DNA of 59,202 nt, from NCBI GenBank assembly GCA_964444145.1, contig CAYUFU010000010.1, forward strand, positions 1-59,202, given 5' to 3'. Shown one piece after another: positions 40,313 through 52,268 of this stretch. Within the stretch, counting starts at the first letter, position 1; every line of letters begins with the position of its first letter. Source of the stretch: an uncultured Chitinophagales bacterium (GTDB lineage: Bacteria; Bacteroidota; Ignavibacteria; UBA10030; UBA6906). The notes below the pieces were generated by a model. That model saw nothing but the letters and a program-made list of their open reading frames with translations, searched no databases and was not told the origin of the DNA. Both the position numbers and the translations under genes were made by a program.

Positions 40313-42025
40313 TCATGCCTTCATCCGTTTCCCTTTTTCCTCGAACGTAAACAACCAACCGCACACCTTCCCCGGGTCAATTTCAGCAAGGTTTTTCCAA
40401 TACTCGCGGTTGTGCATTGTGCGCGAGCTGGAATCGTCCGCGGAGAGCTGCTCAACCTCATGGATGATTTGTCGGAACCGCGCGCGCCAGCGTTCCATAT
40501 TTTTTATGCGCAAGTCCACCCAACCGTCGTGCGCCCAGTGTTCGATGTTCGATGGCGTAATCGGCAGACTCCCCTCGCCGCGGTACGGCGGAATCTTGAT
40601 CATCGGTCCGCGGAGCAACGACTTGCCATCGGGGAGCAAAATGGGGATACCGATGGAGATGATTTGCGATCGCAGTGCCGCATCTTCATGCACTACTTGT
40701 GTAACCGACTTGCTCATCGTGCGCGCGTCGGTGTTGACCACGGTGTGCATATTCGAAAACGTGCGTTTGAGGAGGTACGCCTCGTATAACAGTTTTGAGA
40801 GGCGCGGTGGTCCCAGCATCTCGAAGGCGATACTTTCGGTCCCATGCTGTTCTTCCAAGCGTTGCATCTGCGTCATCGCGTTATTGAACATGAAACCTGC
40901 GCGATAGGTTGGCGCAAGCGTTGCGTTGTCCAGCGCGTTGATGATATCGTGTCCGGTGTTGCCGGCTTTCACTTCGAATACCACGCAGTCGGCGATTTCT
41001 TCGGGAGTGACGAACTCCATCTGCCCAGGCGTCGAGATGGCTTCAAATTCTCCACGCGAGAAAATACCGTTCTCCCCCGTATCAATGAACACTGATCGGA
41101 GTGTGGCTCCGGTCTTTTTTGCTGCTTGTTGCATGTTGAGCCGCAGCGTACCGTTCAGCTTGACTGCGTTCGAGGGTGGGCAGTCAACCAGCTCGACCGG
41201 CTGACCGCGTTTCGTAATTTCGCCGAACGCGATTCTCTTCCACGCGATTGCTGCTGCCGGTTTGATTTCTTTCGTGATCGGCGCGTCGGGTGTTCGTCCC
41301 ATCAAAAACAGTAGCAGCGTGTGTGCGCCTGCCACCGCCGACTTCGACAGCAACACACGCGAGGGGCGCTCCTCACTGTGTGTGTAGGGAATATTTAATC
41401 CCATGCCGCCAGTGCCGCTTGTTCCAATCTTCACGTAGATCTTCGTTCCCGCTTCGCTCATCGAGCGGTACATCAGCTGCACATGGCGAATCAGTTGCGG
41501 AACGTATAGTGTGCACAGCAGTTTCTCCGTAGCTGCAATGAGGTCTTCTTCGTTCCTCCTTTTGTTGCGCGCTGCTCGAATCTGCTTCATCACGTCACGC
41601 GAGACCTGAAAAATGTCCTGATACGCGATCGCCGTCGCAGAGTTCACGCAGTCAATCACGATGTGCGGCTTGTAGTGCATCATCAATTTGAACAACGATG
41701 AACGTCGAAGAACGGTCGGCGTTAGTTCCGCAACGATGTCGTCAATGAACATCGAGCGCTTCGACGTGTCTGACAAAATATCGTCGCGGCTCATATCCTT
41801 GAACTGATGCCGAACGAAAATATTTCCCCACCACGGAACAAAGAAGTCTTTTCCCACCTTTGGAAATTCTGTGCGCAGATGCGCCACGGCGTCCATCGCT
41901 TCTTCCTTCGTCAGCGATGTGACGATCATACGGCGCGGTGCGTCTTCCATTATCTTGCGGCAGATGGCAGAGCCGACCAAGCCCCAACCGCCAATGACGA
42001 GTACAGTCTTACCATTGATATCCAT
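40313..42025 (-). CDS. Rossmann-fold (SDR-like) protein of unknown function, 570 aa
   Basis: KTVLVIGGWGLVG dinucleotide-binding motif, IVIDCVNSAT; remainder not assignable by eye. Confidence 0.7.
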   Translation of the reverse strand: MDINGKTVLVIGGWGLVGSAICRKIMEDAPRRMIVTSLTKEEAMDAVAHLRTEFPKVGKDFFVPWWGNIFVRHQFKDMSRDDILSDTSKRSMFIDDIVAELTPTVLRRSSLFKLMMHYKPHIVIDCVNSATAIAYQDIFQVSRDVMKQIRAARNKRRNEEDLIAATEKLLCTLYVPQLIRHVQLMYRSMSEAGTKIYVKIGTSGTGGMGLNIPYTHSEERPSRVLLSKSAVAGAHTLLLFLMGRTPDAPITKEIKPAAAIAWKRIAFGEITKRGQPVELVDCPPSNAVKLNGTLRLNMQQAAKKTGATLRSVFIDTGENGIFSRGEFEAISTPGQMEFVTPEEIADCVVFEVKAGNTGHDIINALDNATLAPTYRAGFMFNNAMTQMQRLEEQHGTESIAFEMLGPPRLSKLLYEAYLLKRTFSNMHTVVNTDARTMSKSVTQVVHEDAALRSQIISIGIPILLPDGKSLLRGPMIKIPPYRGEGSLPITPSNIEHWAHDGWVDLRIKNMERWRARFRQIIHEVEQLSADDSSSRTMHNREYWKNLAEIDPGKVCGWLFTFEEKGKRMKA

Positions 42026-42163: not shown

Positions 42164-42508
42164 TCAACTCCCGCGATAGGTCGAATAGCCGAACGGGCTC
42201 AACAGCAACGGAATGTGGTAATGTGATCGCGCACTCCTGATTTCAAATGTCACTTCAACGACGGGATAGAAAGCGGTTATTCTTTTCCGCCTGAAATACG
42301 CTCCGGTTTCAAATCTCATGCGGTACGTTCCCGCGGACAACACAAAATCGGGCGGCAGTAAGTCCGTGATGCGTCCGTCATCGTCTGTCGTTCCTGCGGC
42401 GAGCTTCATCCATGTGCTGCCGATTTTCTTTTCCAGCGTCGAGCGAATTCCTTGCGCAGGTTGACCGCGCATCGTATCGAGCACGTGTGTCGTTATTGGA
42501 CTTAGCAT
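42164..42508 (-). CDS. uraH: 5-hydroxyisourate hydrolase (transthyretin-like)
   Basis: ITTHVLDT..GQPA, TDDDGRI, FYPVVEVTF, HYHIPLLLSPFGYSTYRGS. Confidence 0.95.
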   Translation of the reverse strand: MLSPITTHVLDTMRGQPAQGIRSTLEKKIGSTWMKLAAGTTDDDGRITDLLPPDFVLSAGTYRMRFETGAYFRRKRITAFYPVVEVTFEIRSARSHYHIPLLLSPFGYSTYRGS

Positions 42509-42547: not shown

Positions 42548-43237
42548 TTACTTTTCATGGGCTGAGAGTATTCGTAACACCTTCGGCTCGAGAAGTTCAA
42601 CCCACAACTTGTATTGGACGGCCGAAGGATGCAGTCCATCGGGCCCGATGAGCTCGGGGAGGCGAGCAGCTTCACGCGAGATTGCCGTTATATCAACGTA
42701 CTGTGTGTTGGCACGAACGGATTCTTCCCAATTGATTCCGTTAAACGTGTCAATCTCCTTTGCGATGTGCATTCGGTCGCGCCCTTCCGCGAACGGCATC
42801 ACGCCCCAATCGGGAATCGAGACGACGATGACGTGCGAGGATTTTCCGCCGGCAAAAGCGATTGCTCGTTGTAGCAGCGACTTGAATTCGTTTCGATATT
42901 GTTCAGAGCTTCGCCCGCGATATTGGTTGTTCACCCCAATGAGGAGCGTGACGAAGTCGAACAGCCCGCGAGGATGTTCGTTCTCTATTGCAGCAATCAG
43001 CTCGTCCGTCGTCCAACCGGTTTGCGCGATGACAATCGGCTCTGCGATGTTGACATTGCGTTTGCGTAACGATGAGGCAAGTTGGAGAGGAAAGCGCTCG
43101 CTTGCATCAACCGCTTCGCCAATCGTGTATGAATCGCCCAGAGCGAGATAACGAATGAGTGTTGTAGAATCCATTGTCGCTTGAGAGAATGACGGTCTGC
43201 AGAATAAGCAAAGAAGAAAGAGAAAAAAAAGTTTCAC
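42548..43237 (-). CDS. SGNH/GDSL-family hydrolase, exported
   Basis: LALGDSYT, GWTT, IGVNNQY, PDGLHPS. Confidence 0.9.
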   Translation of the reverse strand: MKLFFLFLLCLFCRPSFSQATMDSTTLIRYLALGDSYTIGEAVDASERFPLQLASSLRKRNVNIAEPIVIAQTGWTTDELIAAIENEHPRGLFDFVTLLIGVNNQYRGRSSEQYRNEFKSLLQRAIAFAGGKSSHVIVVSIPDWGVMPFAEGRDRMHIAKEIDTFNGINWEESVRANTQYVDITAISREAARLPELIGPDGLHPSAVQYKLWVELLEPKVLRILSAHEK

Positions 43238-43258
43238 ATCTTCACACCTCGATGTACT

Positions 43259-43921
43259 TTACGGCTGCTGAACCGCATTCACCTGCTCGAAAAACGCAGC
43301 GAGCTTTCGCTCATCCAGCGTTCCCTTCGTCCGAACGCCTGAACACAAGTCAACACCGAACGGTTGAACCAGTCGAATTGCGTCTGCAACATTTTCGGGC
43401 TTCAATCCGCCAGCGAGAAAGACTGGAACGTTCACTGCTTCAACAATTCGTTTGCTGATGGTCCAATCATGCGTGCGTCCAGTTCCGCCGAGTTCTTTCA
43501 CGGCTAACGTTTGATTCCCCGAATCGAGAAGAATCGCGTCAACGTATTCCGAAACCGCAACGGCTTCGTGGATTGATTTCTCACCAGAGACGTGTATCAC
43601 TTGTACAAGCCCGATGCCGTGCAACTCACTGCGCAGTTGTTTGTATGTCGACCTTGCGATCGCATCTACCAACTGAATCGTGCTCGTTCGACAGAAGCGT
43701 TGCTGAGCGATGATTGTGGGCGCGTCCTGCTTGCTCGTTAACAAAAACGACGCAACGCCGGGCGGAATCGTCCGCGCAATCTCTGCAATCAACTCTTCAG
43801 AAATCGGACCAGGTCCGCTCGGCATCGCGGACACAAGTCCGAGTGCAGAGGCACCGTAGCGAATCGCGATCTGCGCCTCTTCAACGCTGCCGATGCAGCA
43901 GATTTTGACACGTGGTTTCAT
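43259..43921 (-). CDS. trpF: Phosphoribosylanthranilate isomerase-family protein
   Basis: VKICCI, ILLDSG, GGTGRTHDW, FLAGGLKPENV, GVDLCSGV. Confidence 0.8.
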   Translation of the reverse strand: MKPRVKICCIGSVEEAQIAIRYGASALGLVSAMPSGPGPISEELIAEIARTIPPGVASFLLTSKQDAPTIIAQQRFCRTSTIQLVDAIARSTYKQLRSELHGIGLVQVIHVSGEKSIHEAVAVSEYVDAILLDSGNQTLAVKELGGTGRTHDWTISKRIVEAVNVPVFLAGGLKPENVADAIRLVQPFGVDLCSGVRTKGTLDERKLAAFFEQVNAVQQP

Positions 43922-45627
43922 GAAGCTCTTTTCTCTGCTCCAAGCTCTATGCCCTTTGCACTTTGTTCTCCGCCGACGAGACGTTTCGCCCGCTCGATTG
44001 CTTCGGCCAATGATCCACAGATGTTCTCCTCGCCAATCTTGTCATAGAGCCCGGAGTTCGTCATGGCGAACAGCGGTTGCTTATGAATACCCGAGATGAT
44101 GAGCGTTGTCCCCTGGTGCCTGAGCTGACTCAGCAAATCCTCGACCGCCCGCAATCCCGACGCATCAACTGCAAGCAAATACCGGGTTTCAAGGATGAGC
44201 ACACGCGGTTTCTTCTCGATGGTGCGCATGGACTCGGTAAACTGGTCTACCGCCCCGAAAAACAGGGAGCCGTACACCTCGAATACCTCAACCCCTTTCG
44301 GTACGACCAGCTTCGTATCGGTCTCTTCTTCTTCCTCGCGCTCTTCCCGGAGGTCTCGTGTGATCGCGTTGACTTGGCTGACCTCGGACATTCTCTTCAT
44401 GAATAACAACGCGGCAAGGACAATGCCGACTTCAATCGCGACAGTGAGGTCAACAACAACGGTGAGAAGAAATGTCACAAGCATAACTGCAACATCGCTC
44501 CGTGGACTCTTCAGTATTTTCACAAAAGATCGCCACTCACTCATGTTGTAGGCGACAAGGATGAGAATCGCCGCAAGCACAGGCATCGGAATCAGCGCTG
44601 CCCACTGTCCGAACACTAACATGATCAACAGCAGGGTAATGGCGTGAATGATTCCCGCAACCGGCGTTCGTCCTCCATTCTTGACGTTCGTCGCCGTTCG
44701 CGCGATTGCGCCCGTGGCAGGTATGCCTGAGAAAAACGGGGTGACGATGTTCGCCGCGCCTTGTGCAATGAGTTCCATGTTTGAACGATGACGCGTGCGA
44801 ATCATGCCGTCGGCAACAACGGCGGAAAGCAACGACTCGATGCCACCAAGCAGTGCAATCGTAATGGCAGGCGAGAACATGCTTGTTATTGTTTGCCACG
44901 AGACTTGAGGAATGCGCGGAGCGGGTAGAGTGCTCGGCACACTGCCAAACCGGCTTGCGATGGTGTCAACAGGGATGTGAAAGATGTGGACGACTGCCGT
45001 GACGAGAAGAAGCGCGACAAGCGAGCCTGGAACGCGATGCGTCACGCGAGGCCAGAGCACCATGATCAACAGTGCCGCAGCACCGACCGCAAGTGCGTTG
45101 TGATCGAGCGAGCCAAGATGTTCTGCATACGCAATCCACTTCTCAACAAAATCAGGCGGAAGCGATGCAATGCGAAAACCGAGAAAGTCTTTGAGTTGCG
45201 ATGAAAAAATAATGAGTGCGATGCCGCTCGTGAATCCGACCGTAAGCGGGTACGGAACGAACTTCAGCAGCGTGCCTAACTTCGCCAAGCCCATGATGAC
45301 GAGGAGAACGCCGGCGATCAGTGTTGCAACCGCAAGCCCATCGTATCCATACTTGGCGACGATGCCGTAGATGATGACAATGAATGCGCCCGTGGGACCT
45401 GAAATTTGTACGCGACTGCCGCCAAGCGCCGCTGCAATAATGCCCGCAATGATTGCCGTGTACAAGCCCTGTTCGGGCTTCACGCCGGAGGCAATGCCAA
45501 AGGCAATTGCTAAAGGCAGCGCAACAATGCCGACCACGACGCCGGCGATACCGTCGGAAACAAACTGTTGTTTCGAATATCCTTGTCTGAGAACTGTGAT
45601 GAGCTTCGGTTCGAACTGAGTATGCAT
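43918..45627 (-). CDS. SulP-family anion transporter with STAS domain
   Basis: DGIAGVVVGIVALPLAIAFGIASG, QISGPTGA, ESLLSAVVAD, GAIARTATN, YGSLFFGA. Confidence 0.93.
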   Translation of the reverse strand: MHTQFEPKLITVLRQGYSKQQFVSDGIAGVVVGIVALPLAIAFGIASGVKPEQGLYTAIIAGIIAAALGGSRVQISGPTGAFIVIIYGIVAKYGYDGLAVATLIAGVLLVIMGLAKLGTLLKFVPYPLTVGFTSGIALIIFSSQLKDFLGFRIASLPPDFVEKWIAYAEHLGSLDHNALAVGAAALLIMVLWPRVTHRVPGSLVALLLVTAVVHIFHIPVDTIASRFGSVPSTLPAPRIPQVSWQTITSMFSPAITIALLGGIESLLSAVVADGMIRTRHRSNMELIAQGAANIVTPFFSGIPATGAIARTATNVKNGGRTPVAGIIHAITLLLIMLVFGQWAALIPMPVLAAILILVAYNMSEWRSFVKILKSPRSDVAVMLVTFLLTVVVDLTVAIEVGIVLAALLFMKRMSEVSQVNAITRDLREEREEEEETDTKLVVPKGVEVFEVYGSLFFGAVDQFTESMRTIEKKPRVLILETRYLLAVDASGLRAVEDLLSQLRHQGTTLIISGIHKQPLFAMTNSGLYDKIGEENICGSLAEAIERAKRLVGGEQSAKGIELGAEKRAS

Positions 45628-45877: not shown

Positions 45878-47311
45878 TTAGTGAGAAGTTCTTCTCCCAT
45901 GCAGGATTTTTACAAACGAACGGCTGCGCAACTCCTCAAGTGTCAATCCCGTCGCAAGCGCTTCGGCTTCCGTGATAGCACGGCAGCTTATGCCGCGAAG
46001 GAAATAATTGAGCAATCCTTGCCCCGTTGCCGCATCGTCGAATACGTTGCCGATAAGTGTAGCTTGCGCGGCTTTCTCCATGAACGACCTGAGGCGAAGC
46101 GTTGCAAGTTCGAGTCCTTCGAGGAAGAACGCATACACGGCGGCATACCGCACGCATAGTTGCGCCGGATGTAAATCCCATCCTTGATAGATGCCGTGTC
46201 GAAGTGAGTGCATCGTATCGTCGAAGGCAAGTTTCCATGCGCGGTGAACTGCGGCTTTGTTTTCCGCGAGCTGTTTCATGCTGAGTCGCTTGCCCTCTTT
46301 CGTGCGGTGGGGACCAACGGGCATGATGTTGGTTGCGCCATCGGAAATGCTGACGCCCGTTTGCGCGAGAGCGACTTTCATCATATGGCGCGCAAAGTCG
46401 CACGCTGGGTGCCGCATCGCCTGATGCGCTGCCGTGATTTCGCACAGCGCAGTATAATCGTACACGCCGAAATGCGCGCCGACAATTCTCCCGCCGCCCG
46501 CGGCAATGAGAAGCGGGATATGCGATTCGCCGCGTGCGTTGAAAATACTTTGCGGCGTTTCGATCATCACCTCAAGTTTCAGTGAGCCGGGTGCAAGCCC
46601 GGTTTTCGATTCCAAAAGGCTGCACAGCTCGACCACTGCAACAACGTGGTGCGGAATCGTCACTTTCGGAATCGTGATGACGAAATTCGGCGGGAGAGAC
46701 CCGCCTGTTGCCTGAACGAGCGATGTCACGAACAACTCCATGGTCCGAAAGCTTCGGGCTTTCAGCTCTTCGGTCAGCGGCTTGATCCGGATGCCGATGA
46801 ACGGGGGGAGTGTTCCCTCGCGCATTCCTTTTGCCACTTCTTGCGCGCAGAACTCCGCATGATAATCTTCTTCTGCATCATCGCGATTGCCGTAGCCGTC
46901 TTCAAAATCAATTCTAAAATCTTCCACAGGTTCGGCGTTCAGCTTCTCGATAACGCGCCTGTAGATTGTATACGATAGCCATGCGTTGCGGTTCTTCGCT
47001 TTCACCAGATCAGGATTCTTCTTGAGATGATTTGTCAGTGAGGCGATTCGTGTTTTGGGTCTCGGTAGGGATTCATACCCATGCAAGTGAACTGCTCGTG
47101 CAAACTCGACGAACGTCGGCGCGTACTCGCGCAGCGCGTTCAAGCCAACCTCTCCCAGCTTCCTCGCTGTATCGAACTTGAATATCTGCGCGCCGCCGTA
47201 CACCGTGTGCACCGGTTGGCGCGCTCCGGTATCGCCCGGATACCCTTTCGCGAAAGCGTGATTCGGTTCGGAGAGAGTATCTAAAATAGTTTTCGCCATT
47301 GTAGAAGTCAT
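45878..47311 (-). CDS. CitE/HpcH-like TIM-barrel lyase (DUF6986-like)
   Basis: RQPVHTVYGGA, DFRIDFEDGYG, GIRIK, EVMIETPQS, AHFGVYDYTA, YQGWDLHPAQL. Confidence 0.75.
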   Translation of the reverse strand: MTSTMAKTILDTLSEPNHAFAKGYPGDTGARQPVHTVYGGAQIFKFDTARKLGEVGLNALREYAPTFVEFARAVHLHGYESLPRPKTRIASLTNHLKKNPDLVKAKNRNAWLSYTIYRRVIEKLNAEPVEDFRIDFEDGYGNRDDAEEDYHAEFCAQEVAKGMREGTLPPFIGIRIKPLTEELKARSFRTMELFVTSLVQATGGSLPPNFVITIPKVTIPHHVVAVVELCSLLESKTGLAPGSLKLEVMIETPQSIFNARGESHIPLLIAAGGGRIVGAHFGVYDYTALCEITAAHQAMRHPACDFARHMMKVALAQTGVSISDGATNIMPVGPHRTKEGKRLSMKQLAENKAAVHRAWKLAFDDTMHSLRHGIYQGWDLHPAQLCVRYAAVYAFFLEGLELATLRLRSFMEKAAQATLIGNVFDDAATGQGLLNYFLRGISCRAITEAEALATGLTLEELRSRSFVKILHGRRTSH

Positions 47312-47438: not shown

Positions 47439-48779
47439 TCATCCTTCCTTTTCCAAATTTCCATCCCATAAGTACTGTTTTGTCTCGGCGGCGATGACGC
47501 GATTCAACACGATGAGCGAGATCAGATTCGGAATTGCCATCAGCCCGTTGGCAATATCGGCGAACGACCACACCGCGCCGAGCGAGAGCACCGACCCAAG
47601 CATGATGGCGATGACCCACAGCCAGCGATAGGGAGCAATGATGCGCGAGCCGAACAGATACTCCGCCGCCTTCTCACCGTAATACGACCATCCGAGAATT
47701 GTTGAAAACACAAATGTCAAAAGTCCGACGGTGAGCACGAGCGGGCCGATGATCGGAATCTCCTCGAACGCAGTTTTGGTCAGTGCTGCGCCCCTCATGC
47801 CCGACATCCACTTACCAGAGTTGACCAGCACAAGTCCCGTCATTGCGCAGACGACAACCGTGTCCCAAAATGTTCCCGTTGACGAAACGAGCGCCTGGCG
47901 AATTGGATTTTTCGTTTGTGCCGCGGCGGCGACGATCGGCGCACTGCCGAGTCCGGATTCGTTGGAAAATAAGCCCCGTGCGACGCCGTAGCGAATGGCT
48001 TCCTTCATGCCGGCGCCGAGGAACCCCCCGATCGCAGCTTGTCCGCTGAACGCGCTCGTGATGATAAGGGTGAGCGTGTTCGGTATCTCTGCCGCATTCA
48101 TCGCAAGCAAGACTGCACAACCGAGCATATAAAAAAAAGCCATGAACGGAACAAGCTTCTCACATACGTTCGCAATCGATTTGATCCCGCCGAGAATGAC
48201 GACGGCAGTCAGCACAGTCATCGCAATGCCCGTTATCCACGGCGCAATGCTAAATGTTTCCTGCACCATCTGCGAGATCGAATTAGCCTGCACCATGTTG
48301 CCGATGCCGAACGCAGAAATTGCCGTGAGCGCAGCAAACACAACACCAAGCCATTTCGCGTTCATCCCGCGCTCGAGCACGTACATCGGCCCGCCTGCCA
48401 TCAAGCCGTTCGCCGTCTTGACACGATACTTCACCGAGAGCAACGCCTCCGCGTACTTTGTCGCGATCCCGAAAACGCCACTGAGCCACATCCACAGCAC
48501 CGCGCCCGGTCCGCCGGCCGCGACCGCTGTCGCAACGCCGACGATGTTACCCGTGCCGATCGTCGCCGCAAGCGCAGTCGTGAGCGCGCCGAATTGGCTC
48601 ACGTCGCCTTCGCCCTCCCTGCTGCGCTTGAGGGAGAGCTTGATCGCCTTGCCGATGTAACGCTGAATAAACTTCAATCGGAACGTGAGAAAAACGTGCG
48701 TGCCGACGAGAAGTATCAACAGGGGATACCCCCACACAAAGTCCGCAACCGCGGCGAGGTAGCTTTCGAGTTGTTCCAT
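47439..48779 (-). CDS. Alanine/glycine:cation symporter (AGCS family)
   Basis: LAATIGTGNIVGVA, GGPGAVLWMW, GGPMY, RGLFSNESGLGS, FSTILGWSYYGE. Confidence 0.93.
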   Translation of the reverse strand: MEQLESYLAAVADFVWGYPLLILLVGTHVFLTFRLKFIQRYIGKAIKLSLKRSREGEGDVSQFGALTTALAATIGTGNIVGVATAVAAGGPGAVLWMWLSGVFGIATKYAEALLSVKYRVKTANGLMAGGPMYVLERGMNAKWLGVVFAALTAISAFGIGNMVQANSISQMVQETFSIAPWITGIAMTVLTAVVILGGIKSIANVCEKLVPFMAFFYMLGCAVLLAMNAAEIPNTLTLIITSAFSGQAAIGGFLGAGMKEAIRYGVARGLFSNESGLGSAPIVAAAAQTKNPIRQALVSSTGTFWDTVVVCAMTGLVLVNSGKWMSGMRGAALTKTAFEEIPIIGPLVLTVGLLTFVFSTILGWSYYGEKAAEYLFGSRIIAPYRWLWVIAIMLGSVLSLGAVWSFADIANGLMAIPNLISLIVLNRVIAAETKQYLWDGNLEKEG

Positions 48780-48907
48780 ACGGTCCCTCAACTATGAACG
48801 AAACAAAAAATTCGTCGAGTTTGGTGTACAAAGGCTAAGAAATCAATTCGTGGTTTATGTCGCACGGCACGGATTGAGGTTTGCGCCCTGTTCAAAGTTC
48901 CTCTATT

Positions 48908-49008: not shown

Positions 49009-49515
49009 TCACCCAGCAAGGAGTTTCTCCAAGCGCAGCCGAGTAATTTTCGCCTGCTCTGCCGCCGCAATTCTGATTTCGATATTCGGAGCATTCGGCA
49101 ATCGCGAGTTCAGAATGGCAAGCATCTCTTCGGCAGACTTACCCGTCGCGCATACGATAAAGATATACCCGAACTTCTGCTCATACTGCCTGTTACCCTC
49201 TGCCAACGCCGCCAATGTTACTTCCGACGCCCGTTTCGCACCCGCTTGTTCCAATAAAGCCCAGTGCGCCGTGCTTACGAATTTCGTACGCAGCGCATCA
49301 ACGTCCCCGATTCTTGGATGATGGGAGAAGGCTTCCTTCCAGTCGGCTTCGGTCAAGCTCCACCAAATCTCATCAGCAACCTTGAGCATCGCTTCGACTG
49401 AAATGAAGGGACGACGCGCGAGCATGTGCTGAACCCACTGCATCGAGCCGCAACAGCGCGTGAACTCACTGATGAGTGCTGATTCAAAGAGTGAGTTTAG
49501 AGTGTTGAGCGTCAT
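49009..49515 (-). CDS. uraD: OHCU decarboxylase
   Basis: CCGS..WV..M..RRPF, EAFSHHPRIG, EQAG, NRQYEQKFGYIFIVCATGKS, EQAKITRLRL. Confidence 0.93.
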   Translation of the reverse strand: MTLNTLNSLFESALISEFTRCCGSMQWVQHMLARRPFISVEAMLKVADEIWWSLTEADWKEAFSHHPRIGDVDALRTKFVSTAHWALLEQAGAKRASEVTLAALAEGNRQYEQKFGYIFIVCATGKSAEEMLAILNSRLPNAPNIEIRIAAAEQAKITRLRLEKLLAG

Positions 49516-49577
49516 TCGTTCGAGCAATGAATTTTGTCATCCAATTTTCCCCCACCCTAAATCCCTCTCCATAAACT

Positions 49578-49641
49578 ACTCCATCACTCCATCACTCCAT
49601 CACTCCACCGATCCACTACTCCAACACTCCATTACTCCACT
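49578..49641. repeat. Tandem octamer array, 8 x ACTCCAYY-like (GATGGAGT-like on the mRNA strand)
   Basis: actccatc x3, actccacc, gatccact, actccaac, actccatt, actccact. Confidence 0.8.
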
Positions 49642-50651
49642 CACACAACTCTCCCCAACACGCGCAACCGACTCACGCCACCGTCGGGAAAAATATTCAG
49701 GCGCACGTGCGTACAAACAGGCAACGGCCTCAACTCAGCCTCGAAGAAATGCTGTTTGTCGGCTTCCAGTTTTGTCGGCGGCAAAATCTCGGTCCAGTGA
49801 AACTCTTGCCACGTCAGCGAGTCAACAATGGCATGGGGTGCATGCACACAATCAATCGAACAGCGGTCGGGATAGTTTCCTTTGAAGTGGTTCGTATCCA
49901 CTTCAATCTTCTGAATCGCTCCAGGTTTTCCGAGCTTGAGAATCACCCAATCGTTGCCGGGTCCGCGGCGGCGCTTTGTTTCCCAGCCGTCCCCCATGGT
50001 TGCCGCGCGCCCCGGCATGATGAGATGTTCCTTGTTGCCGAAAAACATATCGCTTGCCGCCACAACACTGCCGCCGTTGCCGATGAACGCAAGATCAATC
50101 ACCTTATCCTTTGGGACGGTGCTCCAATCCGGTACGACTTCGCCGAACACACGCAACCGCGCCACACCGCCATCGGGAAAAATGTTGAGGCGGATATGTG
50201 TCCAAGTGTTGCTACTTGCGACAGCGAAGAGATTCTGTGCGCCCGGGCGCAAGGGCGACTTCGGCAGAATCTCTTTCCAGGACTTCTCTTCGAATTGCTC
50301 GACGCTGATCGCCTCCGATACACCGCAAGCATCTATGGAAGCATACGCGGGATGGTTGCCGAGGAAGTGATTCGTGTCTATGTCAACGCCCCTGATGATT
50401 CCCGCGAAGCCGAGCTGGATGATGCACCAATCATGACCCTCTCCTCGCTTGCGTCGCGATTCCCACCCATCCATCCATTTGCCTCGGTCCGTGTATTTGT
50501 CCGGGATGAAAATGCCTCGGCCCGGCTTCAACAAATTCTCTTTCGCCGCAAAAAACTCGTCGCTTGCAAGCAACGCTCTACCGCCGAGGCGTTCGCTGGC
50601 GAGGTCAACGAGGCCCGAGAATGTTGCGGCTGGTTCAATGGCTGCGCTCAT
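49641..50651 (-). CDS. alc: Allantoicase
   Basis: Two repeats: SDEFFA..DGWESRRKR..DW and SDMFFG..DGWETKRRR..DW; IDTNHFLGN, RLNIFPDGGVARLR. Confidence 0.95.
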   Translation of the reverse strand: MSAAIEPAATFSGLVDLASERLGGRALLASDEFFAAKENLLKPGRGIFIPDKYTDRGKWMDGWESRRKRGEGHDWCIIQLGFAGIIRGVDIDTNHFLGNHPAYASIDACGVSEAISVEQFEEKSWKEILPKSPLRPGAQNLFAVASSNTWTHIRLNIFPDGGVARLRVFGEVVPDWSTVPKDKVIDLAFIGNGGSVVAASDMFFGNKEHLIMPGRAATMGDGWETKRRRGPGNDWVILKLGKPGAIQKIEVDTNHFKGNYPDRCSIDCVHAPHAIVDSLTWQEFHWTEILPPTKLEADKQHFFEAELRPLPVCTHVRLNIFPDGGVSRLRVLGRVV

Positions 50652-50715: not shown

Positions 50716-52062
50716 CTATACGCCGCCATTCTCTCTCATCAAGATTGTTCCCATGGGAGCAGTGAAGTCTTTACCGTCAAAAATCTTGTTTCCCCGGAGA
50801 TATGTCGCATGGAGTTTTCCGAACAGCCTTCGTCCTTCATACGGCGTGAGTGTGTGGCGATGATGAATAATAGGCGGTTCGACCACGAACGACTCGTCGG
50901 GATTCCACACAACAACATCGGCGTCGAAGCCGGGAGCGATTTTTCCTTTTCGCCTCTCAAGTCCGACGAGCTTCGCTGCATGTTCGGCGGTCCACCGTGC
51001 CAGATCGGCAATCTCACATCCCCGCTTGCGCGCTTCCGTCCACAGTATCGCCAAGCCGAATTGCAATGATGAAATTCCTCCCCACGCTTTCGCGAAATCA
51101 CCTTGCGCGAGCAATTTCAGTTCGGGCGGACAGGGCGAATGGTCGGAAGCGATGAAATCAAGAACGCCCTCACGCAGCGCGCTCCACAGCCGTTCGTTAT
51201 TCTCACGTTCTCGAATCGGGGGCGCGCATTTGAATCGCGTGTCGCCGTCGGGAATTTCCTCCGCATTGAAATACAAATAATGCGGACAAGTCTCGGCAGA
51301 AATCGGCACGCCCGCGGCTTTGGCTTCGCGCAGCAGCGGAATCGCTTCTGATGAAGATACGTGAACGATGTGAACTCTGCAACGGAATTCTTTGCACAGG
51401 CGAATCATCAGAGCAACGGCGTCATTTTCCCATTTGCGCGGGCGGGAGAGAAGATAGCGGCGATATGAACGCGAGCTCCAGAGTTGTGGTTCGAGGTCTG
51501 GGAGTTCGGCGTGAACAAGAAGCGGTAATCCGCTCTCCGCAAGTGTGGGCAACGCCCTGCGAAAATCACGTTCGGTTGTTGCAGGAAAATCATCAATGCC
51601 TGAGTGAATCATGAATGCCTTCACGCCGAGCACACCTGTAGTCAACAGCGGTGCTAACGTGCCCGCGTTTTCAGGAACGAGTCCGGCATGAAAACCGACA
51701 TCAACATGAAGCTGTGACTCCGTTGCCGCGAGTTTTGCCTTGAATGCGTCAACATTGGTCGTCACGGGCGAGCTGTTGAGCGGCATATCAACAAGCGTTG
51801 TTACGCCCCCAGCCGCGGCAGCACGCGTTGCGGTTGCGAATCCTTCCCACGCCGTTCGCCCCGGCTCGTTGATGTGAACGTGTGGGTCAACGAGTCCGGG
51901 CGACACGACCAACTCGCCCACATCCTCAATGTGCGCGCTCGAAGGGATACTGCGTGGTGACTCAGTGCGAAGAATTCTTCCATTCTCGACGACAATCGCC
52001 GCATCTCGTACGCCCTCAGGCGTAACGACGCGGCGACTGCGAAGAACAAATGATGGTTGCAT
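50716..52062 (-). CDS. allB: Allantoinase
   Basis: PGLVDPHVHINEPG, DMPLNSSP, LVHAE, HIVHVS, ETCPHYL, FKCAPPIR, ASDHSPCP, WGGISSLQ; start 52062 or 52089. Confidence 0.93.
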   Translation of the reverse strand: MQPSFVLRSRRVVTPEGVRDAAIVVENGRILRTESPRSIPSSAHIEDVGELVVSPGLVDPHVHINEPGRTAWEGFATATRAAAAGGVTTLVDMPLNSSPVTTNVDAFKAKLAATESQLHVDVGFHAGLVPENAGTLAPLLTTGVLGVKAFMIHSGIDDFPATTERDFRRALPTLAESGLPLLVHAELPDLEPQLWSSRSYRRYLLSRPRKWENDAVALMIRLCKEFRCRVHIVHVSSSEAIPLLREAKAAGVPISAETCPHYLYFNAEEIPDGDTRFKCAPPIRERENNERLWSALREGVLDFIASDHSPCPPELKLLAQGDFAKAWGGISSLQFGLAILWTEARKRGCEIADLARWTAEHAAKLVGLERRKGKIAPGFDADVVVWNPDESFVVEPPIIHHRHTLTPYEGRRLFGKLHATYLRGNKIFDGKDFTAPMGTILMRENGGV

Positions 52063-52268
52063 TAGAGATGCGAATTCCAATGTGACCAAACTTCATGTTC
52101 ATCCAAAGCTTCAGGACAGATTTCTTTACATCGGCGTTGCGGGCACTTTCGTATTGTGCGTTCAATGTGGAAGTAATGCTGCCGCTTCTCTTCGTTGACC
52201 GAGCGAACATGCTGCGCGTCTTCCGCTCTCAACGGCTCGATGGCGATCGCCGGCACGGAGGACTCGTG

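Follow-up and report, generated by a model that had tools for sequence, protein, structure and literature searches.

Cleavage of ureidoglycolate is the last step of purine breakdown, and the locus described here raises the question of which enzyme performs it when no known gene for that step is present. The locus lies on contig CAYUFU010000010.1 (assembly GCA_964444145.1) of an uncultured Chitinophagales bacterium, the full 59,202-nucleotide stretch of which was analysed and is referred to below as the window. Within its allantoin-degradation cluster, a gene at 45878..47311 on the minus strand codes for a protein of the DUF6986 family, which a first-pass annotation had read either as an uncharacterised malate-synthase-like enzyme or as a new ureidoglycolate lyase. 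Our analysis supports this two-way reading and favours the second option, because AllA, the known bacterial lyase, is missing from the genome while a malate synthase gene (aceB) is present, and because the distribution of DUF6986 across genomes complements that of AllA and correlates positively with that of canonical malate synthase. The window protein is therefore presented as a candidate Mg2+-dependent (S)-ureidoglycolate lyase, a functional analogue and not a homologue of AllA, with a probability that we put at roughly 55%.

The gene is an intact open reading frame coding for 477 residues, but a database copy of the protein with 100% identity is 473 residues long, and translation may in fact begin at the second ATG (47299). 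A full-length match to PF22484 (DUF6986) places the protein in this family (586.7 bits, E 3e-176, for a gathering score of 27 bits; residues 14-469 against profile positions 2-408 of 408), and the gene is single-copy in the source genome. The family is large, with at least 8000 proteins scored and 2362 clusters at 50% identity. Matches to HpcH_HpaI (PF03328, 23.7 bits against a gathering cut-off of 25) and to MS_TIM-barrel (PF01274, 15.6 bits against 26.4) both stay below threshold, and kinship to these two families is at the superfamily level only. An NCBIfam search gives the window protein no name and no match to a malyl-CoA (coenzyme A) lyase or citE model, and PDB sequences searched with the single window sequence returned nothing useful, a malyl-CoA lyase being reached only with the family profile.

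The four motifs on which the superfamily assignment was originally based are all there: DFEDG (D135 to G139, within RIDFEDGYG), GIRIK (G173 to K177, within FIGIRIKP), IETP (I250 to P253, within VMIETPQ) and GVYD (G282 to D285, within FGVYDY). Their residues are invariant in an alignment of 48 homologues (62-85% identity) and the resemblance to CitE, malyl-CoA lyases and malate synthases is not due to chance. The family profile reaches the malyl-CoA lyase of M. extorquens (5ugr) by sequence with an E value of 6e-4; its lPKv...mIETp...hFGvyDY falls on the metal-ligand motifs of both 5ugr and malate synthase G, and its GWDLHPAQ on the WAIHPSQ (IHPxQ motif) of 5ugr. In this alignment E251 and D285, both invariant in the family, fall on the Glu and Asp positions that bind Mg2+. 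R175 (in GIRIK) and D425/D426 (in the FDDAATGQ lid) are also invariant and lie in the regions expected for the catalytic arginine and the lid aspartate, an equivalence by region only.

The same picture emerges from structure. An AlphaFold model built on the family alignment (mean predicted local distance difference test score, pLDDT, 87.7; predicted template modelling score, pTM, 0.86) has as its top Foldseek matches, in the comparison proposed by the first-pass annotation, CitE-like putative lyases, malyl-CoA lyases and malate synthases A, G and H (probability 1.00), and every strong PDB match falls in this one superfamily. In VIA-align the closest structure is the malyl-CoA lyase of R. sphaeroides (4l9y; Z 27.2, root-mean-square deviation 2.4 A over 291 residues), followed by human CLYBL (Z 26.1; 5vxc, Z 26.1), the Chloroflexus and Roseiflexus malyl-CoA lyases (Z about 25-26), the Haloferax malate synthase (Z 23; 3oyz, Z 23.3) and malate synthases A and G (Z 20-22; 3cv2, Z 22.4), giving an overall range of Z 20-27. 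The (beta/alpha)8 barrel and the C-terminal lid can be superposed on the solved members of the superfamily, with an identity to any of them of only about 15-18%. Together the structural matches and the profile-aligned motifs make both the superfamily assignment and a Mg2+/2-oxo-acid site (E251, D285 and probably R175) well founded.

The genetic context points to purine catabolism. The genes of the cluster and their neighbours are as follows.

50716..52089, minus strand: AllB, the allantoinase that converts allantoin into allantoate (TIGR03178, 556.7 bits, cut-off 357.85)
49641..50651, minus strand: allantoicase Alc, allantoate to ureidoglycolate and urea (TIGR02961, 451.9 bits, cut-off 277.9; two repeats of PF03561)
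49009..49527, minus strand: 2-oxo-4-hydroxy-4-carboxy-5-ureidoimidazoline (OHCU) decarboxylase UraD (PF09349, E 3.8e-42)
47439..48791, minus strand: AgcS-family amino acid:cation symporter (TIGR00835, 488.8 bits)
45878..47311, minus strand: DUF6986 protein, 477 residues, candidate Mg-dependent ureidoglycolate lyase with a CitE/malyl-CoA-lyase/malate-synthase fold
43918..45627, minus strand: SulP/DauA-like anion transporter with a STAS domain (PF00916 and PF01740)
43259..43921, minus strand: divergent TrpF/PRAI-like protein, below every equivalog cut-off
42548..43237, minus strand: GDSL/SGNH hydrolase
42164..42508, minus strand: 5-hydroxyisourate hydrolase UraH (TIGR02962, 146.8 bits against a cut-off of 87.45)

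The product of Alc is the proposed substrate of the DUF6986 protein. Searches of the whole source genome, which is 99.35% complete, found no match to AllA (PF04115) anywhere, and soluble uricase, the urease alpha subunit, urea carboxylase and glyoxylate carboligase (gcl) were likewise not found. The earlier remark that neither aceB nor gcl is present thus holds for the window, and for gcl throughout the genome, but not for aceB, as adjacent aceA and aceB genes, the latter coding for a canonical malate synthase, are located on another contig (C57); the premise that the cluster needs a malate synthase of its own is weakened accordingly. An AllD route for ureidoglycolate was considered and rejected, the sole Ldh_2 (AllD-family) gene sitting among unrelated genes. 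The only candidate for urate oxidation in the genome is a PuuD-like protein of 289 residues (C46:4858-5727, locus L122) made up solely of the Urate_ox_N membrane domain and lacking the cytochrome c domain, and whose gene adjoins patatin and CstA genes away from the purine cluster. These search results leave the conversion of ureidoglycolate to glyoxylate and urea as the one step between urate and malate without a known gene. Since both urease and urea carboxylase are absent, the urea released by Alc and by the proposed lyase would be lost, so that the pathway can yield only glyoxylate, for AceB, which suggests an anaplerotic or carbon role for it rather than nitrogen scavenging.

To what extent this association holds beyond the window was examined in 80 species-representative DUF6986 loci. 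In 47 of them allB/alc/uraD/uraH lie beside the DUF6986 gene, and these uricolytic loci span Bacteroidota, Chlorobiota/Ignavibacteriota, Cyanobacteriota/Melainabacteria, Acidobacteriota, Myxococcota, Planctomycetota and others; the first-pass annotation would have been undermined by a lack of co-occurrence with alc and allB, and synteny with them is instead found in many phyla. Typical operons read allB-alc-uraD-DUF6986-...-uraH with xanthine dehydrogenase (XDH) nearby, or uricase-allB-alc-uraD-uraH-DUF6986. Seventeen further loci, from Acidobacteria, have an M49-like neighbour. The idea that Acidobacteria loci devoid of uricolytic genes represent a separate context was abandoned: five uricolytic loci share this neighbour, between DUF6986 and uraH, and the Acidobacteria loci therefore belong to the same extended cluster. 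The M49-like protein (about 558 residues, with a weak Peptidase_M49 match) is encoded directly after DUF6986 in Acidobacteria (L026:3413-5089 and 21 other loci), and a Myxococcota relative of it sits between AllA and xdhAB (L109:11280-12407); it looks like another partner in purine catabolism.

The link to allantoicase is tightest within the phylum of the window, of which an even sample of 351 genomes was searched. DUF6986 scores over its cut-off in 24 of these genomes and a two-repeat allantoicase is found in 17, all 17 of which carry DUF6986 (at most 4 kb away in 16 cases) and none of which carries AllA, the six weak AllA matches of the sample belonging to other genomes. Four more carriers are without allantoicase. 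The three examined combine PuuD with the arrangement AllB-AllC(M20)-UGlyAH(cupin)-UraD-UraH-DUF6986, the fourth (G334, of the same genus as G154) being outside these three, and Hymenobacter translucens, an isolate, has the same AllB-AllC-UGlyAH-UraD-UraH-DUF6986 order. As the Alc and the AllC/UGlyAH routes both end at (S)-ureidoglycolate, alternative modules for allantoate degradation keep the same last gene. There are also (uricase-)allB-uraD-uraH-DUF6986 operons without any gene for allantoate degradation (L098-L101).

The distribution of AllA is largely complementary to that of DUF6986. PF04115 is not matched in 30 of 43 genomes with DUF6986 in uricolytic context, is matched weakly (mostly partially) in 11 and strongly in two, and no AllA homologue was found by tblastn with AllA proteins inside the window or about 100 related DUF6986 loci; an apparent AllA within the Myxococcaceae locus L079 proved to be a coordinate coincidence with another contig. 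In a Ketobacter locus (L111) the order is XdhAB-AllB-Alc-UraD-UraH-AllA-PuuD, with AllA in the slot held elsewhere by DUF6986. Canonical malate synthase, for its part, is found in 11 of 21 close DUF6986 carriers against 31 of 330 other genomes of the phylum sample, counts that describe a pattern and not a statistic because the sampled genomes share kinship. This enrichment is the pattern expected of a glyoxylate producer, not of a malate synthase substitute. A supposed second DUF6986 paralogue in one genome (G399) turned out to be a pyruvate kinase, and no conserved or informative context was seen for a divergent subfamily with 39-45% identity (G068, G196 and G212).

The proposed reaction can be fitted to the predicted site. 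The carboxylate and 2-hydroxyl groups of ureidoglycolate would chelate a Mg2+ ion held by E251 (MIETP) and D285 (GVYDY), R175 (GIRIK) would polarise the substrate, and a base, for which D379 or D425/D426 of the invariant FDDAATGQ lid are candidates, would take the hydroxyl proton; urea would then depart, perhaps protonated by H280 or H381, leaving glyoxylate, presumably without any need for CoA. AceB, the canonical malate synthase whose gene lies on contig C57, would then take up the glyoxylate, the whole pathway running through the PuuD-like oxidase, UraH, UraD, AllB, Alc, DUF6986 and AceB. What the analysis shows is the fold, the motifs, the synteny and the phyletic distribution, whereas the substrate, the parts played by individual residues and the independence from CoA are inferred.

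A precedent for such a reaction exists in animals. Zebrafish has a malate-synthase-like protein (MSL), detected because it co-evolves with allantoicase and uricase, that acts as a ureidoglycolate lyase (UGL), depends on Mg and is specific for the (S) enantiomer; the glyoxylate/metal site is retained in it, whereas the site for acetyl-CoA is not (Dembech et al., PNAS 2023, PMC10120013). The DUF6986 protein resembles the Danio rerio enzyme in its structural superfamily, in the proposed conversion of (S)-ureidoglycolate to glyoxylate and urea and in the logic of its discovery, which started from a link to allantoicase and uricase in genomes that lack AllA. The zebrafish protein is however a true paralogue of malate synthase A and a member of the malate synthase orthogroup, whereas DUF6986 misses the cut-off of the malate synthase model in Pfam and has a structure closer to the CitE-like malyl-CoA lyases, so that by this analogy it would be an independent bacterial recruitment of the fold. 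With AllA (PF04115; E. coli, Pseudomonas) it has in common the proposed reaction, the operon slot after alc, uraD and uraH and, among allantoicase-bearing genomes, a complementary distribution, but there is no detectable sequence similarity and the fold family is different, which would make this a case of non-orthologous displacement.

Among CoA-ester enzymes, the L-malyl-CoA/beta-methylmalyl-CoA lyase Mcl1 (4l9y of R. sphaeroides, 5ugr of M. extorquens, 4l80 of Chloroflexus) and human CLYBL share the PKV, IET, FGVxDY and HPxQ motifs with DUF6986 and superpose on it with Z 25-27. They differ in that DUF6986 is about 150 residues longer, having a helical segment added at its N-terminus and a lid of greater length at its C-terminus, has no NCBIfam or Pfam assignment to those families, and is found in the window in a context without CoA-ester genes. 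Malate synthases A, G and haloarchaeal H (3cuz, 1d8c, 3oyz; Z 20-23) have in common with it the TIM barrel, the Glu/Asp ligands of Mg, the C-terminal lid and glyoxylate as a ligand. DUF6986 nevertheless has no significant sequence match to them, is not distributed in a complementary way, and co-occurs with a canonical aceB elsewhere in the genome.

Several observations weigh against the ureidoglycolate lyase reading. Ureidoglycolate decays spontaneously (PMC10120013), so the hole in the pathway need not be enzymatic. Identities of 60-85% across phyla are unusually high for an enzyme with so small a substrate, strong AllA matches and DUF6986 occur together in two Myxococcota genomes, and canonical malate synthase is absent from 34 of the 43 uricolytic-context genomes (metagenome-assembled genomes of unknown completeness), where a glyoxylate-consuming role would therefore also fill a hole. 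We found no mention of DUF6986 in the papers searched and no biochemical data on the family. Six of the 80 loci form one proteobacterial/SAR324 clade (100 in the Shimodaira-Hasegawa-like approximate likelihood ratio test, SH-aLRT) nested among the uricolytic-context proteins and about 60% identical to the window protein, whose context has nothing to do with purines; this clade is the best argument for considering the whole family CoA-dependent. It is carried by Accumulibacter, Ketobacter, the gamma proteobacterium HdN1 (complete genome), SAR324 and others, in which the DUF6986 gene opens an operon and is followed by four or five others (DUF6986-Mcd-Mch-Ecm-MeaB(-Ccr)), as in the following stretches.

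L097, 10001-17472: nested-clade operon
L123, 9001-16577: nested-clade operon
L124, 9001-18257: nested-clade operon
L064, 9896-19335: nested-clade operon (Accumulibacter)

Mcd is a long acyl-CoA dehydrogenase resembling methylsuccinyl-CoA dehydrogenase, and is accompanied by a mesaconyl-CoA hydratase-family protein, a fused B12 acyl-CoA mutase and MeaB, with a crotonyl-CoA carboxylase/reductase (TIGR01751, over cut-off) added in the Accumulibacter and SAR324 operons. This gene content corresponds to the part of the ethylmalonyl-CoA pathway that leads from crotonyl-CoA to beta-methylmalyl-CoA. A beta-methylmalyl-CoA lyase should come next, and DUF6986 thus takes the position in which Mcl1 would be looked for. 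No other HpcH/CitE-family gene was found in Ketobacter and two other nested-clade genomes, which leaves DUF6986 as the sole, non-canonical, candidate for that lyase in them. The nested clade keeps 126 of the 139 highly conserved positions of the family, including all the putative catalytic ones, suggesting from conservation that the whole family may bind acyl-CoA. The 13 otherwise conserved positions at which it differs include eight (P178T, L183C, H280I, M299H, N328T, R336K, H381N and D422N) that map to the lid loop or directly behind barrel strands, and these suggest a changed rather than a shared substrate pocket, fitting a change of leaving group. Beside the Accumulibacter operon and divergently oriented, three genes (L064:4394-7851) code for a CitE-like lyase, a second MaoC hydratase and a 2-methylfumaryl-CoA isomerase (TIGR04253, 801 bits, over cut-off). 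In the 3-hydroxypropionate bi-cycle these enzymes act late in the half that assimilates glyoxylate, which suggests for Accumulibacter a hybrid route from mesaconyl-CoA to pyruvate and acetyl-CoA.

The main rival to the ureidoglycolate lyase reading is a CoA-dependent glyoxylate enzyme. If the family is CoA-dependent as a whole, it would represent a new type of malate synthase or malyl-CoA lyase, making malate or malyl-CoA from glyoxylate and acetyl-CoA, and ureidoglycolate would either decay spontaneously or be cleaved by another protein. Such an enzyme agrees with malyl-CoA lyases, CLYBL and malate synthases being the best structural matches, with the operons and the sole-candidate status of the nested clade, with the conserved positions that clade shares with the uricolytic proteins and with the many uricolytic-context genomes devoid of malate synthase. 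We nevertheless consider it unlikely, as the source genome and Hymenobacter translucens both possess a canonical malate synthase and no AllA, malate synthase is enriched and not complementary among DUF6986 carriers, otherwise complete operons would be left without a gene for the ureidoglycolate step, and the substitutions of the nested clade suggest a changed pocket. A bifunctional enzyme, whose single site would eliminate urea and condense the still-bound glyoxylate with acetyl-CoA, thereby avoiding any release of this toxic compound, would account at once for the absence of AllA, the frequent absence of malate synthase, the extreme conservation and the seemingly CoA-dependent nested clade; it seems improbable, being superfluous in genomes that have AceB, such as the source genome, while the positive association with canonical malate synthase argues for the release of free glyoxylate.

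Even less probable, in our opinion, is some other reaction of the phosphoenolpyruvate (PEP)/pyruvate superfamily, be it that of a 'phosphoenolpyruvate kinase', as some NCBI records label homologues, a glyoxylate plus pyruvate aldolase, or an enzyme acting on allantoate. A PEP-binding domain (9dae) is among the weaker Foldseek matches, but CoA-ester lyases and malate synthases score far above PEP enzymes, the window protein has no nucleotide-binding or phosphohistidine domain, and the kinase name has no literature behind it, no paper having been found that pairs it with allantoicase. Operons lacking allantoicase (for example uricase-AllB-UraD-UraH-DUF6986) could be taken to mean that DUF6986 acts on allantoate itself, yet in the five such genomes the lack is compensated, by alc elsewhere in four and by AllC/UGlyAH in the fifth (Hymenobacter).

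The ureidoglycolate lyase reading and the nested clade might be reconciled, as the two reactions share a common form, in which a Mg2+-bound 2-hydroxy-acid loses its C2 group, either urea or a propionyl-CoA enolate, to give glyoxylate. DUF6986 proteins would then be glyoxylate-forming lyases acting on X-CH(OH)-COO-, recruited twice, with X a ureido group in the uricolytic form and a propionyl-CoA carbanion in the nested clade, a proposal that we make only tentatively. The uricolytic form would be a third, bacterial type of ureidoglycolate lyase and the nested clade a replacement for Mcl1, the switch being made by a few substitutions in the pocket, among them H280I, H381N and M299H. A bolder variant would have the uricolytic form couple urea elimination to acetyl-CoA condensation, with glyoxylate not released.

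The remaining genes around DUF6986 in the window vary in their conservation. The AgcS symporter gene is inserted between uraD and the DUF6986 gene and is absent from related loci. A sulP gene is found downstream of DUF6986 in Hymenobacter as well (L102). The TrpF-like and GDSL pair (42548-43921) lies between sulP and uraH, and of the other uricolytic clusters only those of the closest relatives contain it: both genes are present in L001 and L017, the GDSL gene in L018 too. Downstream of uraH, a protein of 570 residues (40313-42025) belongs to no Pfam family, has a faint Rossmann-like N-terminus and no homologue in any of about 100 related loci; the possibility that it is kin to the M49-like partner was rejected, the proteins being unrelated. 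Promoter and terminator scans found the cluster no richer in such signals than shuffled sequence.

Across much of the bacterial tree, in Bacteroidota, Acidobacteriota, Cyanobacteriota/Melainabacteria and other groups, complete uricolytic operons have no known gene for ureidoglycolate cleavage. If the DUF6986 protein is the missing lyase, a pathway hole would be closed in thousands of genomes, the names 'phosphoenolpyruvate kinase' and 'citrate lyase beta subunit' would be corrected, and bacteria and animals would each have recruited the malate-synthase/CitE fold, independently, for this C-N lyase reaction. In Accumulibacter, Ketobacter/HdN1 and SAR324, which matter for phosphorus removal and hydrocarbon degradation, the lyase missing from the ethylmalonyl-CoA pathway would moreover be provided by the nested-clade protein.

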